From a virus (Duplodnaviria > Heunggongvirae > Uroviricota > Caudoviricetes): 45,775 bases of DNA. Shown piece by piece: positions 2,459 through 43,470 of the stretch. The notes under the pieces were generated by a model that saw nothing but the letters and a program-made list of their open reading frames with translations, did not search any database and was not told the DNA's origin. The position numbers were made by a program, and so were the translations under genes. Each line of letters opens with the position of its first letter. Position 1 is the stretch's first letter. Where the stretch lies: IMG/VR virus record IMGVR_UViG_2718218398_000003. The stretch is one strand, 5' to 3'.

Positions 2459-3415
2459 ATGACCAATTTGTATAAGTTTATGGGAGCGGATATAATTGAT
2501 AAATTGATGATGGATGAAACACATATAGGAATAAAATTCTCTCATTTACATGAATATAATGATCCCTATGAGTTTTTCCTTACTATTGATTTTAATCGCG
2601 GTTCTGATGAGTTAGCATTTTACAATGAAATGATTGGCATGGTTACAAAACAACCAGCAACTTGTTTTACGAAAAGCCCTGTGATACCACCTATGTGGGC
2701 ACATTATGCAGGTAATTCTTCTGGTTTTGTAATAGAGATTAATGAGGAGAAGTTTAAAAAGTATTTGGATGAAATCGGCTTCCAGGATCATAGTTCAATA
2801 GCAGATGTTGAATATAAAGATTCTCCAGATACAGGTATTGAAGACATTCTGGCGAGAGCATTTCATATCTGTAAACCTCGTTATATCTACTGGCTACAAT
2901 CCTGTATAATGACAGCCGCATATTTGACAAAACAAACTTGCTGGAGTTATGAGCAGGAACGTCGCGTAATAATTAATGAGAAAGCACTTACTAAACTGAA
3001 TGACAATCTTATGCTCCTTCCGGTACCGATTAATTGTATAACTGGAGTTATAGTTGGGCACAAATCAAATGATTTATTAAAGCAGAAAATTCAATCTTTA
3101 GCTAAAAAGGCTAAATGTAGATATTTCGAAATGGTAATAGGAAAAACAACAACTACACCATTTCTTTTATCTCAAAATCTCAAATCACACCAATTTATTA
3201 ATGGCAATATAATACCTGCATCAAGGCAATGTAAAAAATGTTATGAGCCTTTAAACATGGAAAATAAAGTTTGTGGCTGGTGTGGAATTACTAATCATGA
3301 TGTGAAAATGGCAGAGTACCGTAATTCATTTCGAATGATAGCCAACTATGGTGGGCTGGATAAATATATATCATCCATGAATAAGATTACTGAAGAGTAT
3401 AATAAGGGTAAATAA
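2459..3415 (+). CDS. DUF2971-like protein with C-terminal CxxC...CxxC zinc ribbon (318 aa)
   Basis: ATG at 2459 with AAGGAG 6 nt upstream (track start 2453 is a TTG). N-terminal ...LYKFMGADIIDKLMMDETHIGIKFSHLHEYNDPYEFF... and later ...PMWAHYAGNSSGFVIEI... and ...CWSYEQERRVI... fit my recollection of the DUF2971 family; C-terminus has CKKCYEPLNMENKVCGWCG. Very AT-rich. Confidence 0.6.
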   Translation: MTNLYKFMGADIIDKLMMDETHIGIKFSHLHEYNDPYEFFLTIDFNRGSDELAFYNEMIGMVTKQPATCFTKSPVIPPMWAHYAGNSSGFVIEINEEKFKKYLDEIGFQDHSSIADVEYKDSPDTGIEDILARAFHICKPRYIYWLQSCIMTAAYLTKQTCWSYEQERRVIINEKALTKLNDNLMLLPVPINCITGVIVGHKSNDLLKQKIQSLAKKAKCRYFEMVIGKTTTTPFLLSQNLKSHQFINGNIIPASRQCKKCYEPLNMENKVCGWCGITNHDVKMAEYRNSFRMIANYGGLDKYISSMNKITEEYNKGK

Positions 3416-6233: not shown

Positions 6234-7058
6234 TCAGGCGGTGAAAGTACCAATAAAGGTTTCTACTTTGCTGTCTTTGAATTTTTCAACAAGCAGATCA
6301 CGAAATTCGTTAGCCATTTCTTCCTGTACTGCTTCCAGCTGAATAATGCGCAGAACCAGTACAGGGCGATCACCAGTGATAATGCTGAGGCGTAATTTAA
6401 ACGGACGTTCTTTCAGGCCTTCAAACGGAACGCATTTAAACTCAAATGCTACTGGCATAATGTCTTTGGTTTTCGCTTCGACAGACTCCATCAGAGAGCG
6501 TTTGCCGCTGAAGTCATTGTCTTCAAAATCAGCGGTCTGGTTTGCTTCAATCGTGATTTTACGGACCGCCGCAGCCGCTTTTGTTGCCTGAATGGCGTCA
6601 CCATTAGCATCAAAGCCCACAAGGTAGTCGGCCCAGTCTTCAATCCATTCTGCCAGTGACTTCTGGGAGTTACGCTCGCCGTTAACAGACAACAGGGCAG
6701 AGAACGGTGCTGTCTTTTTCAGTTTGAGAGTGGCGGTGTTATCTGCGTGACCTGGTTCATCAATAGTACCCAGGTTAAGCACACTGACGGCTCGCATATT
6801 ATCAGCATCGATAAAGCAGCGGGTGCCTTCATCTGCAAGATCTTTAGAATAACGGGTAAAGTCATCGATGCTGGCAGTGGAAAGCGCACCACGGAAACGG
6901 AAGCGATTTAAATTAAATTTTTCCAGATCATGAATGCGGAAATTCTCAGGCAATGCCACAGCATCGGCACCAATCTTACTGATAATTTCATTAACACCCT
7001 GAGCAGAAATAAGGGCATGGATTTGATTAATTGCGGTTGCGTCTAAGTTCTGAGACAT
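6234..7058 (-). CDS. DUF2303/YfdQ-like phage protein
   Basis: 274 aa; resembles my recollection of the CPS-53 yfdQ product in sequence and length; function unknown. Confidence 0.7.
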
Positions 7059-7123
7059 AATAAGGCCTCACTATATAAAGATATTCAGTGATGAGATAAA
7101 TAATCAGTTAATTAAGAACGATA

Positions 7124-7486
7124 TTAATGACCTGCTGCGCGGAGTTTTCCGTCAGGTTCACCGGCAAGAGTCAGTAATTGTCCCTGGTCTTCCTGCAGAA
7201 TAGTCAGGCGACCACCGCGATTGACATACATCGGCGTTTCGGTGGTGTCTTCTTCGGAAATTTTCCCGCGGTTAGTCGGGCGAACATATGAGAGTTTGTG
7301 TTTGATTTTCACACGGTTCTCATCAAATGGTTCGATTTCCAGGTTGAGTGAGACCTTACCTTTGGTTTTCGTGTTCATCACACCGGAAGCGACTTCACTG
7401 AGAACTGCGCCGATTTTGGTTTCAAATACGCCGCCGTCCAGCTCCCCGATAAATGCCTGCACATCAGTACTGCGTTCGCTAGCCAT
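7124..7486 (-). CDS. YfdP-like hypothetical protein, first gene of early-left operon
   Basis: Start placed at internal ATG (MASERSTDVQAF...) with AGGAG 8 nt upstream. The 5' part of the track ORF (7487-7717) has odd composition (Cys/Arg/His-rich) and overlaps the leader inverted repeat, so it is unlikely to be coding. Confidence 0.6.
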   Translation of the reverse strand: MASERSTDVQAFIGELDGGVFETKIGAVLSEVASGVMNTKTKGKVSLNLEIEPFDENRVKIKHKLSYVRPTNRGKISEEDTTETPMYVNRGGRLTILQEDQGQLLTLAGEPDGKLRAAGH

Positions 7487-7535
7487 TTTGCTGCTCCTCA
7501 TCATATCGACCCTGTAAGGTCGGTTAGTTTCTCCA

Positions 7536-7622
7536 CAAAACAGAGAAGAACACCTGCGGTGGCAGCCGCCCGGATGGATTGGGTTATGAGCCCGTCGTCC
7601 GGTGATGCTCTTCTCTGTTTTG
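7536..7622. promoter_or_regulatory. 14-bp perfect inverted repeat (CAAAACAGAGAAGA ... TCTTCTCTGTTTTG) enclosing a GC-rich 59-nt segment, in the early-left leader
   Basis: Arms at 7536-7549 and 7609-7622 are exact reverse complements; the interior contains further short stems (e.g. GGGTT-atg-AGCCC). Lies about 50 nt upstream of the first early-left gene. Confidence 0.5.
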
Positions 7623-8094
7623 TAAAAAGAGCGGTACCAGCCGGAAGCAAGGGTACAAACTGGTACCGCCAAAGCAGTGGCTGTTGTGGTGGGGTTGTCA
7701 CTCAGGCGTATGGTCAACCTGACAATCCGGTGTCCTCAACGGGGAAAGAGTAACCCCGCCATACTTACCGCCGCGCCATTTCGCGGATTACCACAACGCT
7801 GAGAGCACTTAGCCAGTTACAGCACCACACTTTGTCGCGGCTCCATAAATGCCCTCATCGTTGCACCCTGGTCTCTTCCCAGGCGTCAAACCGAATCGCC
7901 ACGCTGGTTAGGCGTCTTATCAGCATCATCATTGACTTGCACATTCCGGCTACCTGGTTTGTTTGCCCGAGCAAGGAGTGGATTGTCCCCTTTAACGTCC
8001 CCAGACCGCTAACGACGCATGTGCCATACGCCGTGTTACAACCAAATTTTGTTAGTACCTTGTTTGTTTGTCTGGAAAGAAAGATAAAATGAAG

Positions 8095-8133
8095 TTGCGC
8101 ATTATGCAAGTGTTTTTGTTGCGAGATATGCAA
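8095..8133. promoter_or_regulatory. OL-like operator repeats (TTGCG-N5-TGCAA)
   Basis: Two 15-bp near-palindromic sites, TTGCGCATTATGCAA and TTGCGAGATATGCAA, just beyond the cI terminator; same motif as the site in the cI-cro intergenic region. Confidence 0.5.
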
Positions 8134-8143
8134 TTTAAAGGGT

Positions 8144-8168
8144 AATGAAAAGCCACCTTTGGGTGGCT
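8144..8168 (-). terminator. intrinsic terminator downstream of cI
   Basis: AGCCACC-tttg-GGTGGCT hairpin followed on the minus strand by a U-rich run; 20 nt past the cI stop. Confidence 0.7.
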
Positions 8169-8188
8169 AATTGATGAGGAGGTAAGGG

Positions 8189-8881
8189 TTAATTGTGTCG
8201 CTTAAGGGTTTGTGACTGGCTGATTAAGACCTTTCCAAAGACCATAAACCGGTGTTCATTTTCGCTGGTAATTCCCCATTCACGGTAAATCTGGTTATCA
8301 GAAATCACCAGTAGTTTGTCAGGTATCATTTGCAGTCGTTTGACATAAATTTTATCATCAAAACCAAATACATAGATACCATCTCCATCAAACTGATTGA
8401 TACTGACATCAACGAAGATGAGATCTCCTGGCTCAATGGTTGGACACATACTGTCCCCACGAACGTTGATAACTTTAATGTGATTGGCTGGCCGTCCGCC
8501 AAACATCGATACAGCATTATCAGTTCTGTATTCAATGGCATGAATCACATCAATGACATCACCGCCCTGGATAAGGCCATTTCCCGCACTGGCACTGACA
8601 TCCAGCATTTCAATACGGAATACATCCTTCACCTGCGCAACATCCTCACTAATACTGTTTTTACATACAGTATTACTTTTGACGTCTGAGGTAAAGAGAT
8701 CTGCAATATCAACACCTAAGCTCCTGGCAATATTACTCAGGGCTTGTTCAGTGAATTGTTTCTGCTTACCTGTTTCCAGGCGTGAGATATTCGCCGCATC
8801 CACTCCTATTGCTTCAGCGAGATCGGCGATTTTCATGTTCTTCGCCTGGCGAAGTTGTCTGACTCGGTTTCCTATGTTCAT
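8189..8881 (-). CDS. cI: cI-type phage repressor (HTH-XRE N-domain plus S24 LexA-like autopeptidase C-domain)
   Basis: 230 aa; N-terminal HTH (...IADLAEAIGVDAANISRLETG...); C-terminal ...GDSMCPTI...YVKRL... carries the Ser/Lys dyad of S24 peptidases; divergent from the cro-like gene. Confidence 0.9.
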   Translation of the reverse strand: MNIGNRVRQLRQAKNMKIADLAEAIGVDAANISRLETGKQKQFTEQALSNIARSLGVDIADLFTSDVKSNTVCKNSISEDVAQVKDVFRIEMLDVSASAGNGLIQGGDVIDVIHAIEYRTDNAVSMFGGRPANHIKVINVRGDSMCPTIEPGDLIFVDVSINQFDGDGIYVFGFDDKIYVKRLQMIPDKLLVISDNQIYREWGITSENEHRFMVFGKVLISQSQTLKRHN

Positions 8882-8901: not shown

Positions 8902-8964
8902 TTGCGTGTTAAGCAAATCAACTTGCGCAAAATATTTGCGTGAAATAATATGCTCATCACGCAA
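8902..8964. promoter_or_regulatory. OR-like operator/promoter region between cI and cro
   Basis: Contains TTGCGTGTTAAGCAA (15-bp site), the 8-bp palindrome TTGCGCAA, and inverted repeat TTGCGTGA-N13-TCACGCAA in the 97-bp divergent intergenic region. Confidence 0.6.
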
Positions 8965-10127: not shown

Positions 10128-11099
10128 ATGAGCACTAAATTAACCGGCTATGTATGGGATGGTTGCGCTGCATCAGGCATGAAATTATCCAGCGTGGCAA
10201 TTATGGCCCGCCTGGCTGATTTCAGTAATGACGAAGGTGTGTGCTGGCCATCAATTGAAACCATTGCCCGTCAGATTGGCGCGGGGATGAGTACCGTCAG
10301 AACGGCTATCGCACGGCTGGAAGCAGAAGGCTGGTTAACGCGTAAGGCGCGTCGCCAGGGTAACCGCAATGCGTCGAATGTTTATCAGCTTAACGTTGCG
10401 AAGCTTCAGGCAGCGGCATTTTCTCAACTGTCAGATTCTGACCCGTCAAAATCTGACGCATCAAAATCTGACGCATCAAAATCTGACGCATCAAAATCTG
10501 ACCCGTCAAAATTTGATGCGTCGAAATCTGGCAAAAAAGCGGGTTTTCACCCGTCAGAATCTGGCGGGGATCCGTCAGTAAAATCAAAACATGATCCGTC
10601 AGATAAAAAACCTTCTCGTCCGGACGCTTCGCAACCGGACACGCAGACGGCTGAACAGGATTTTTTAACTCGCCATCCTGATGCGGTTGTATTCAGCCCT
10701 AAAAAGCGCCAGTGGGGGACGCAGGATGATTTGACCTGCGCACAGTGGCTCTGGAAAAAAATCATCGCCCTGTACGAGCAGGCTGCCGAATGTGACGGCG
10801 AGGTGGTTCGTCCCAAAGAACCGAACTGGACAGCCTGGGCAAACGAAATTCGCCTGATGTGTGTGCAGGATGGTCGTACTCACAAACAAATCTGCGAGAT
10901 GTACAGCCGCGTCAGCCGCGATCCGTTCTGGTGCCGTAACGTGCTCAGCCCGTCGAAGCTGCGGGAAAAATGGGATGAGCTTTCTCTGCGCTTATCGCCG
11001 TCCGTCAGCACGTACACAGAAAAACGCGAAGACCCGTACTTCAAAGCCAGTTACGACAATGTGGACTACAGCCAGATCCCGGCAGGATTCAGGGGGTGA
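10128..11099 (+). CDS. replication initiator (lambda O-like; N-terminal HTH, iteron-containing)
   Basis: 323 aa; N-terminal winged-HTH-like region; internal SKSDASKSDASKSDASKSD repeat encoded by 15-bp DNA iterons, as in lambda O / ori. Confidence 0.85.
   Translation: MSTKLTGYVWDGCAASGMKLSSVAIMARLADFSNDEGVCWPSIETIARQIGAGMSTVRTAIARLEAEGWLTRKARRQGNRNASNVYQLNVAKLQAAAFSQLSDSDPSKSDASKSDASKSDASKSDPSKFDASKSGKKAGFHPSESGGDPSVKSKHDPSDKKPSRPDASQPDTQTAEQDFLTRHPDAVVFSPKKRQWGTQDDLTCAQWLWKKIIALYEQAAECDGEVVRPKEPNWTAWANEIRLMCVQDGRTHKQICEMYSRVSRDPFWCRNVLSPSKLREKWDELSLRLSPSVSTYTEKREDPYFKASYDNVDYSQIPAGFRG
10431..10535. repeat. replication origin iterons: 7 tandem 15-bp repeats (consensus TCAAAATCTGACGCA)
   Basis: Three perfect copies at 10446-10490 flanked by four degenerate copies; further CCGTCAG-containing degenerate repeats to about 10610; all inside the initiator gene. 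Confidence 0.85.
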
Positions 11100-42886: not shown

Positions 42887-43470
42887 TGGCATTCAGAATG
42901 AGTGAACAAGCACGGACCATAAAAATTTATAATCTGCTGTCCGGAACTAATGAATTTATTGGTGAAGGTGATGCATATATTCCGCCTCATACAGGTCTGC
43001 CAGCAAACAGTACCGACATTGCACCGCCAGATATTCCAGCTGGCTTCGTGGCTGTTTTCAACAGTGATGAGTTATCGTGGCATCTCGTTGAAGATCATCG
43101 GGGTAAAACGGTTTATGACGTGGCTTCCGGCGACGCGTTATTTATTTCTGAACTCGGTCCGTTACCGGAAAATGTCACCTGGTTATCCCCGGAAGGGGAG
43201 TTTCAGAAGTGGAACGGCACAGCCTGGGTGAAAGATGCAGAAGCAGAAAAACTGTTCCGGATCCGGGAGGCGGAAGAAACAAAAAACAGCCTGATGCAGG
43301 CAGCGAATGAGCATATTGCGCCACTTCAGGATGCTGTAGATCTGGAAATCGCAACGGAGGAAGAAAACTCGTTGCTGGAAGCCTGGAAAAAGTATCGGGT
43401 GTTGCTGAACCGTGTTGATACATCAGTAGCACCGGATATTGAGTGGCCTGCTGTCCCTGTTATGGAGTAA
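42886..43470 (+). CDS. tfa: tail fibre assembly protein (Tfa)
   Basis: 194 aa; [54 protein letters not shown]... classic Tfa signature; start overlaps the stf stop. Confidence 0.9.

Follow-up and report, generated by a model that had tools for sequence, protein, structure and literature searches.

The stretch of DNA analyzed here (the window; virus record IMGVR_UViG_2718218398_000003, 45,775 nucleotides (nt)) is a complete lambdoid prophage of Escherichia coli, which lies at thrW and is 100% identical to strain AR435. Between the start of yfdP, the first gene of its early-left operon, and a cI-like repressor gene there are ~700 bp in which the Prokaryotic Genome Annotation Pipeline (PGAP) places no annotation. 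In an earlier reading of the letters and open reading frames (ORFs), below called the sequence-only reading, it was pointed out that the start of yfdP at 7486 and an operator region at 8095-8133 leave a long leader, and this is the case. In this paper we looked at that leader and at a folded RNA within it, which we call the CAU-loop element. The element is a selected RNA fold on a lytic transcript, and it represents a widespread phage RNA family without a match in Rfam 15, which is left unannotated or is mis-called as a protein (ymfH in E. coli K-12). Its apex resembles the anticodon arm of the initiator tRNA-Met.

The inverted repeat and its RNA fold

The sequence-only reading described a 14-bp perfect inverted repeat around a GC-rich core of 59 nt. 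The repeat is real, but it is 15 bp long (7535-7549 / 7609-7623); the core was correctly placed and measured (7550-7608). The repeat extends imperfectly to 25 nt at 84%, appears as a 25-pair helix in the minimum free energy (MFE) fold and is the strongest local structure of the leader; by our own estimate the chance of a perfect 15-bp repeat in 650 nt is ~2e-4. Folding of the minus-strand leader, which had been proposed as a check, gave a structure more stable than its shuffled versions (z = -4.6, 0/20). The MFE fold reproduces a three-way junction with the following parts:

7527-7630, minus strand: the CAU-loop element, subtype T1, a three-way-junction RNA of ~105 nt (covariance model and MFE fold)
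7623-7604 with 7554-7535, minus strand: helix P1, the closing helix, which is the inverted repeat
7602-7596 with 7576-7570, minus strand: helix P2, 7 bp, capped by the apical domain
7595-7577, minus strand: the invariant apical domain ACGGGCUCAUAACCCAAUC
7569-7556, minus strand: hairpin P3, variable among homologues (14 to ~40 nt)
7534-7527, minus strand: the conserved tail GGAGAAAC, after the junction and complementary to the U-run of the preceding hairpin

Homologues were collected by BLAST, by exact-pattern scans of viral and genome collections and with a covariance model, and on the minus strand all have the same architecture, with P1, P2 and P3 joined in a tight three-way junction. BLAST homologues at ~84% identity are found in ST64B, Citrobacter phiNP and Klebsiella Kp4866-6, and the covariance model gives a single hit in the 45.8-kb window, with 123.5 bits on the minus strand vs 46.7 bits on the plus strand. 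Among 36 T1 variants, 95.2% of the alignment cells pair, compared with 39-54% when the partners are slid by 1-3 columns, and changes on both sides occur in 10 pairs (58 cells), which none of 500 shuffles reaches. An alignment of 31 distinct enterobacterial variants of all subtypes shows 89% pairing vs 29-55% for slid partners, and all 7 pairs of P2 have compensatory changes. Only the minus strand tolerates G·U pairs, for example at pair 23:107 (GC 24, GU 10). These compensatory changes, which are found in P1, P2 and P3, together with the strand asymmetry indicate an RNA of the PL transcript, and they bear out the suggestion that repeat and core form a functional minus-strand RNA. Conservation in related prophages was another check proposed in the sequence-only reading, and both the repeat and the fold are kept there. 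In 41 of 52 T1 variants the helix is 24-26 bp long, which is the size of an RNase III substrate.

The homologues have lengths of 104, 105, 106, 107, 108, 127, 130 and 131 nt, with indels of 1, 2, 4, 23 and 26 nt, and some variants carry stop codons in every frame, so that no ORF is conserved. A leader peptide or a ymfH-like protein was thus rejected. The Rfam search, which had been proposed as a check for put elements or phage small RNAs (sRNAs), gave no match to the element or to any other module of the leader: the whole window at the gathering threshold returned only IS009, and permissive searches of 7000-8400, of 7600-7720, of a copy of subtype T2 (see below) and of homologous loci returned nothing relevant. 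The IS009 match (RF02111) is a full-length one of 209 bits at 43229-43427 on the plus strand, near the tail-fibre end of the prophage.

The consensus of the apical domain, (G)ACGGG-nUCAUwn-YCC-AAUC(CA), does not change, whereas each subtype has its own sequence in P1, P2 and P3, and GGG-nUCAUwn-YCC is present in every subtype; the form in the window is (G)ACGGGCUCAUAACCCAAUC(CA). The GGG/CCC pairs around a 7-nt loop with U at loop position 2 and CAU in its center are features of an anticodon loop. Within the domain, GGGCUCAUAACCC (GGG-CUCAUAA-CCC) is identical over 13 nt to positions 29-41 of the E. coli initiator tRNA (tRNA-fMet), and when the flanks are included the identity to the arm is 17/22 nt. 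The apical domain is kept in homologues that were found independently of the motif, both by BLAST (ST64B, phiNP and the Klebsiella phage) and by the covariance model (two copies in phage P1 and one in Pantoea PA-1). Among 80 genome hits, none lies within a tRNA.

The leader as a cassette of RNA modules

The element does not stand alone in the leader. From the repressor gene toward yfdP the features are:

8189-8881, minus strand: cI-like S24/XRE repressor gene
8151-8168, minus strand: terminator-like hairpin just after the repressor gene, 7 pairs (5 G-C) followed by TTTTC
8095-8133: left operator region with two exact TTGC-N7-GCAA sites (8095-8109 and 8119-8133), found as a direct repeat and by pattern match
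7838-8050, minus strand: module C, a second conserved structured RNA, unannotated
7787-7799, minus strand: junction of modules C and B, where the homology to Uetakevirus genomes ends 4-8 nt into their tRNA-Arg position
7691-7797, minus strand: module B, with a hairpin (7728-7693) and then CCACCACAAC (7692-7683)
7624-7670, minus strand: DicF-type hairpin and U-run, GGCGGUACCAG-(19 nt)-CUGGUACCGC-UCUUUUU (-20.7 kcal/mol)
7487-7522, minus strand: small hairpin (7522-7507) and the Shine-Dalgarno sequence GAGGAG (7499-7494) before the yfdP start codon
7486-7124, minus strand: yfdP, the first early-left gene, followed further leftward by yfdQ, yfdR and int

A third exact TTGC-N7-GCAA site is found at 8902-8916, to the right of cI, and since operator sites lie on either side of the repressor gene the operator assignment of the sequence-only reading is sound. 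A consensus promoter scan made no PL call; by eye, the PL promoter may be placed here with a -35 of TTGCAT (8109-8104), a -10 of TATCTT (8086-8081) and a start near 8074. The hairpin 8168-8151 terminates the repressor transcript and insulates the PL leader from cI transcripts. At the position of the small hairpin 7522-7507 the relatives also have a hairpin, with differing sequences. Rightward of the immunity region there are cro- and cII-like genes and a Q-family antiterminator. In the replication region, a helix-turn-helix protein (10128-11099, plus strand) contains a tandem peptide repeat, SDASK/SDPSK, in ~6 copies.

A boxA-like string was also reported in the sequence-only reading, at about 7629-7639. 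The string, CGCTCTTTTTA, in fact lies at 7633-7623, and its identity changes as well: it is the 3' arm and U-run of the GC-rich hairpin 7670-7624, an arm that varies with its partner. In relatives this 3' arm changes freely with the opposite arm (CCGCCCUUUUU, GCCGACCUUUUU, GCCGCAUUUUUUU and GGGCACCUUUUUU), and 84 variants include the compensated stems GGCGGUACCAG/CUGGUACCGCC, GGCGGCAUC/GAUGCCGC, GUCGGCGUC/GACGCCGAC and UGCCCAUC/GGUGGGCA. What persists is the U-run alone, which 112 of 114 loci keep. For a lambda-type nut site, no conserved boxA (CGCUCUUA-like) was found, and CGCUC of CGCUCUUUUUA varies with its pairing partner in relatives. The hairpin 7670-7624 is an intrinsic terminator or the 3' end of an sRNA. 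The segment upstream of it is single-stranded and reads UGCUGUGUGUAGUC in most variants but AGCCACUGCUU in the window; it is preceded by CCACAAC and another hairpin. Such an arrangement corresponds to that of an sRNA whose seed varies and whose terminator is conserved.

The hairpin is identical in 19/21 positions to the terminator half of DicF, with a score of 30 against a shuffle maximum of 24 (0/1000 shuffles). Module B is ~93% identical to positions 3001-3108 of a Qin-type prophage locus (L003), directly 5' of its Rfam DicF hit (2975-2924), and its sequence is also found within the phage P1 misc_feature 'dicF-like region'. The Rfam DicF model (RF00039) has no hit at E <= 10 in 7000-8400 or 7600-7720, compared with 76.7 bits at the Qin-type locus. 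Since the flank and the terminator match but the model is silent, we named the hairpin DicF-type and not DicF. That prophages contain sequences similar to dicF was already known in 1994 (Faubladier and Bouche, cited in PMC8910356).

Module C contains the invariant blocks ACGGCRUAUGGCACAUG, GGUAGCCGGAAUGUGCAAG, UCACCA and GGCGAUWCGGUGUGAC and a GGAAGAG loop, and its RNAalifold consensus has 32 pairs, of which 9 show compensatory changes. Homologues are found in P1, D6, O157 typing phage 9, SPN1S, Tyrion, mEp390 and a Klebsiella phage, Uetakevirus members being included, and the module usually adjoins a tRNA gene. Its junction with module B was compared with the tRNA-Arg position by means of the tRNA annotated at 2242-2318 in one of these genomes (L006) and the coordinates of the match. 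A small ORF in module C (MCKS...) was considered and dropped, as by eye its frame is lost in O157 typing phage 9.

The sequence-only reading found no N-like gene in the leader and named 7855-8133 as its sole ORF. The first statement holds and the second does not, because the region is also crossed by a 66-amino acid (aa) ORF (7501-7701, minus strand) and by yfdP itself, if this gene is extended in frame to a TTG at 7717. The 92-aa ORF at 7855-8133 matches no PHROG family. The only match of the 66-aa ORF, which lies over the element, is phrog_33599, a family of unknown function that seems to derive from spurious ORFs called over this RNA. Neither ORF has an N-like PHROG match or is conserved, the TTG extension of yfdP is not kept as a reading frame either, and the variants of the element share no reading frame. 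In SfV, mEp460 and ST64B no N-like gene was found, and SfV orf33 is acidic. The interval of the 'missing N' gene is a leader of ~590 nt that is made of RNA modules: C, B, the DicF-type hairpin and terminator, and the CAU-loop element.

Subtypes, genomic positions and distribution

Subtype T1, to which the window copy belongs, lies in PL leaders, with relatives in ST64B, SfV, mEp460 and Klebsiella. In 112/114 loci it is directly behind the hairpin and U-run, and the first gene after it encodes YfdP/Sb37 (78 loci), an RdgC-like protein (13) or YfdR (8). Subtype T2 is found in Klebsiella and Raoultella phages after the last tRNA (tRNA-Arg, -Asn or -Phe) of an array downstream of Q, at a fixed GAUAAU spacer and ~200 nt from the next ORF. 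Its P1 of 6 bp and P3 of 6-7 bp form a stack of 12-13 bp, which is followed by an RCCA tail; a stack of this length with RCCA corresponds to the helix length that RNase P measures (PMC10731613). Subtype T3 has an unrelated P1 sequence. Q genes of two different families precede it by 100-400 nt, and it comes directly after a tR'-like hairpin and U-run and ahead of the lysis genes.

Two diverged copies are found in the C1-controlled ban operon of phage P1 (L005, 1214-1320 and 1496-1574, plus strand), among tRNAs. Both have the orientation of the operon, antisense to plp and upl as annotated, and these two small ORFs may merit re-examination. In the e14 element of E. coli K-12 a copy lies at 3031-3134 (L002, minus strand) inside the ymfH coding sequence (3002-3313), with a loop that has decayed to UUAAUAA; ymfH of K-12 is probably not a protein gene. 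In a genome-wide screen a ymfH clone triggered the toxin of retron-Sen2 (RcaT; bioRxiv 10.1101/2020.06.22.160242), and since such a clone necessarily expresses the e14 copy of the RNA, this result can be taken as one hint of activity.

Of 5426 complete E. coli genomes, 2491 contain T1 at an identity of at least 90%, in as many as five copies per genome, annotated as 'none' or 'hypothetical protein'; in most genomes PGAP leaves it unannotated. Stx2 phages and Shigella serotype-converting phages are among the carriers, as are Salmonella ST64B and, in diverged form, phage P1. Within the Enterobacterales the element is found in Klebsiella, Citrobacter, Enterobacter, Kosakonia, Mixta, Erwinia, Yersinia, Leclercia, Raoultella, Trabulsiella and others. 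Outside this order the 19-nt pattern gave ~45 hits where ~35 are expected by chance, and most look like chance. Such hits were retained only with flanking stems of at least 9 bp, and five have flanking stems of 9-14 bp, compared with 0.3% of random positions. Three of these are in metagenome-assembled genomes of Saccharibacteria (L148, L176 and L201), with covarying stems and a strong intrinsic terminator ~60 nt downstream, which looks like a stand-alone sRNA gene. The fourth, from Acidobacteriaceae (L174), has a 2-helix form and lies in the lysis region of a prophage, and the fifth comes from an uncultured gammaproteobacterium (L213).

Mosaic homology breaks fall at the ends of the element. 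A non-coding block, GUUGYGGUGAAUGCGGCUMAGCGCACGCGGG, is shared between the SfV PL leader (L224, ~2355-2385) and the sequence after the phage P1-type copy (L005/L183), and its counterpart GGUGAAUGC follows T3 elements. The recurrence of this block suggests further shuffled RNA modules.

Possible function and comparison with known systems

One question that is raised by these data is why the apical domain is kept in so many different settings. We tentatively propose, as the best reading that we have but one that could well turn out to be wrong, that the element is a stable, non-coding mimic of a tRNA anticodon arm, which is processed and acts in trans. Transcription leftward from PL would yield the element as the last non-coding module of the leader, and only upon passage of the DicF-type terminator, i.e. 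in lytic development. Its function would reside in the unchanging apical domain, ACGGG-nUCAUwn-YCC-AAUC, which would present a U-turn-type 7-nt loop with a CAU 'anticodon' on a stem of three G-C pairs, features that together characterize the anticodon arm of the initiator tRNA-Met. Release from the read-through transcript may be carried out by RNase III in the long-helix subtypes and by RNase P or tRNA processing in the tRNA-array subtype with its RCCA tail. The freed RNA could then bind, as ligand or decoy, some factor by which the tRNA-fMet anticodon arm is recognized, candidate partners being a VapC-type toxin that cleaves tRNA-fMet, methionyl-tRNA synthetase, or the 30S P site with initiation factor 3. 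The data show the RNA fold, its strand, the family, the positions in the genomes and the identity to the tRNA-fMet arm, whereas we infer the stability, the processing, the action in trans and the partner.

The genomic positions are consistent with such a role. T1, T3 and the phage P1 copies are the first structure after the first terminator of the PL, PR' and ban operons, and T2 follows a tRNA array. The PL, PR' and ban transcripts are all lytic, and the RNA is therefore made when defences act. An enterobacterial VapC cleaves initiator tRNA (PMC5175351), and phage tRNAs have been proposed to counter anticodon nucleases (PMC10264068); together these make a putative decoy role plausible.

Several points weigh against a mimic that acts in trans. 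The apical motif was the query in the collection scans, so that its invariance there is partly circular, and the non-circular evidence for it comes from the homologues found by BLAST and by the covariance model. The tRNA pairs 27:43 and 28:42, below GGG/CCC, are mismatched in the element, the AAUC(C)A on its 3' side, which is conserved to the same degree, corresponds to nothing in a tRNA, and loop position 37 is A or U. ARAGORN finds no tRNA in the window and does not call T1 or T2 as one even when its relaxed or mitochondrial mode is used, and RF00005, the tRNA model of Rfam, has no hit at E <= 10 in 7000-8400 or in the T2 copy; with no cloverleaf by either program, a tRNA gene was ruled out. 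The window copy has a P1 of 20-25 bp and no RCCA tail. The position behind a terminator may keep the dose low, and a purely cis role is possible.

Such a cis role is the explanation that we would consider next, as a possible but rather doubtful one. Here the element would be a processing or stability element, in which the 24-26 bp helix (P1 together with the U-run paired with GGAGAAA) is an RNase III site. Cleavage there would separate the sRNA of DicF type from the mRNA that follows it, and would determine for yfdP and the other early-left genes where the message begins, how stable it is or how it is translated. The lambda N leader contains an RNase III site, which the long PL-leader helix recalls, and the comparison can be extended to DicF, whose read-through transcripts are processed by RNase III. 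T1, T3 and the phage P1-type copies have a long, almost perfect helix, the element comes first after the terminator and just before the first ORF, whether YfdP, RdgC-like or YfdR, and GGAGAAAC can pair with the U-run. Yet a cis-acting RNase III site leaves 19-22 invariant apical nt unexplained while the helix sequence is free to change. It also does not fit T2, whose P1 has only 6 bp and which lies in tRNA arrays ~200 nt from the next ORF, nor the 2-helix form of Acidobacteria and the stand-alone forms of Saccharibacteria with their own terminator.

The anticodon-arm mimic can also be put in a wider form, which we regard as unlikely: the element would belong, as its enterobacterial branch, to a family of RNAs from phages and prophages of several phyla that display the initiator-tRNA arm as a decoy, acting in the lytic cycle as a sponge or inhibitor of defence toxins that target tRNA-fMet (VapC-type PIN nucleases or similar), or capturing the initiation machinery. 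The copies with covarying stems in Saccharibacteria, in an Acidobacteria prophage and in uncultured Gammaproteobacteria leave this multi-phylum decoy standing. If true, it would be an RNA-based device of anti-defence or host takeover in place of the classical N gene.

The antitermination element like HK022 put that was offered in the sequence-only reading, i.e. a processive antiterminator in which the nascent RNA binds RNA polymerase and replaces N, seems to us very improbable. It would fit the N-less state of the window phage, SfV, mEp460 and ST64B and the presence of a conserved folded RNA within the PL operon. Against it, the element shares neither sequence nor architecture with HK022 putL/putR, is present in one copy per genome with none in the PR operon, and lies downstream of the only strong terminator, with no convincing minus-strand terminators to follow; T2 and T3, moreover, are in Q-antiterminated late operons, where no extra antiterminator is needed. 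We give equally little credence to an evolutionary relic, a decayed and functionless phage gene for tRNA-Met or tRNA-Ile2(CAU) that hitch-hikes in a mosaic junction. The 17/22 identity to the tRNA-fMet arm, the T2 copies with an RCCA tail in tRNA arrays, and the end of the neighbouring module C where tRNA-Arg starts in other phages would all agree with it, but three compensating helices and an apical domain retained across subtypes of unrelated sequence point to selection, and the defective e14 copy, with its lost loop, shows what decay looks like. A protein-coding gene of the ymfH type or a site in duplex DNA (a protein-binding palindrome, the sequence-only reading having also allowed a protein-binding site, or a recombination boundary) is hardly credible, for although some records annotate ORFs as 'hypothetical protein' or ymfH, a PHROG matches and mosaic homology breaks at the element's ends, the frame-breaking indels and stops, the absence of PGAP annotation in most genomes, the one-strand tolerance of G·U pairs and the model scores of 123 vs 47 bits on the two strands speak against it.

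Other candidates were rejected. An AgvB-type sponge of GcvB would need CACAACA, which is found in only 10/52 variants and is absent from the window copy. Pairing of the loop with the yfdP ribosome-binding site (CUCAU-AUGAG) can be formed in the window and is not conserved in ST64B. The phi80 M3 RNA, a classic RNase P substrate, is annotated as an oop homologue between cII and O and is unrelated. For co293 (C0293) of e14, which we take to lie between icd and ymfD, and for svsR, there was no indication of either being the element. According to its paper svsR, a co293-like prophage sRNA, is encoded on the opposite strand at the cI 3' end in NC-SV-like prophages. The literature on ymfH, yfdP, ST64B sRNAs and tRNA mimics, in a search that left subscription journals mostly outside, gave no description of the element.

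Nearly half of the complete E. coli genomes carry the element, which offers a new family for Rfam-type annotation. For N-less lambdoid phages, a 'missing N gene' interval that is a conserved RNA cassette changes the approach to early-left regulation, and an RNA with an initiator-tRNA arm that arises from lytic read-through could be a decoy against tRNA-targeting defences.

Among known systems, HK022 is likewise a lambdoid phage without N, and its early operon encodes a folded RNA, put, in cis. This RNA consists of two adjacent stem-loops of ~70 nt, located in both early operons and upstream of the terminators, whereas the element is a single-copy three-way junction downstream of one; by BLAST, the HK022 PL and cro-cII regions gave only chance matches to the leader, and putL and putR resemble each other. 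With DicF and the Qin dicBF leader the window shares the 5' flanking sequence and the position of the terminator hairpin and U-run. The 5' seed of DicF is replaced in the window, and Qin has no counterpart of the CAU-loop element downstream of DicF. The sRNAs AgvB, AsxR, Pas and HnrS occupy the 'moron' site at PR', and T2 and T3 lie in the same post-tR' region, which in Stx phages holds tRNAs and sRNAs (PMC4104026). The Rfam families of AgvB and AsxR have no hit on the element, and the same holds for those of the prophage RNAs IsrK, STnc100 and C4.

Stable non-coding RNAs of decoy-like or unassigned function that are co-transcribed with tRNAs, in or near phage tRNA clusters, include the species 1 and 2 RNAs of T4, the bacterial YrlA Y RNAs with their tRNA-like domains, and GOLLD and ROOL. 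With these the element has the tRNA-cluster setting in common, as T2 ends tRNA arrays and module C adjoins tRNAs. It is smaller, mimics the anticodon arm rather than the acceptor or T arm, and matches no Rfam family. From the tRNA-fMet arm itself the element differs by its mismatched lower stem, its extra AAUC(C)A and its being borne by phages. Mimicry of a tRNA arm is established for E. coli thrS and threonyl-tRNA synthetase, and the thrS operator is likewise an RNA that presents an anticodon-like arm to a tRNA-binding factor.

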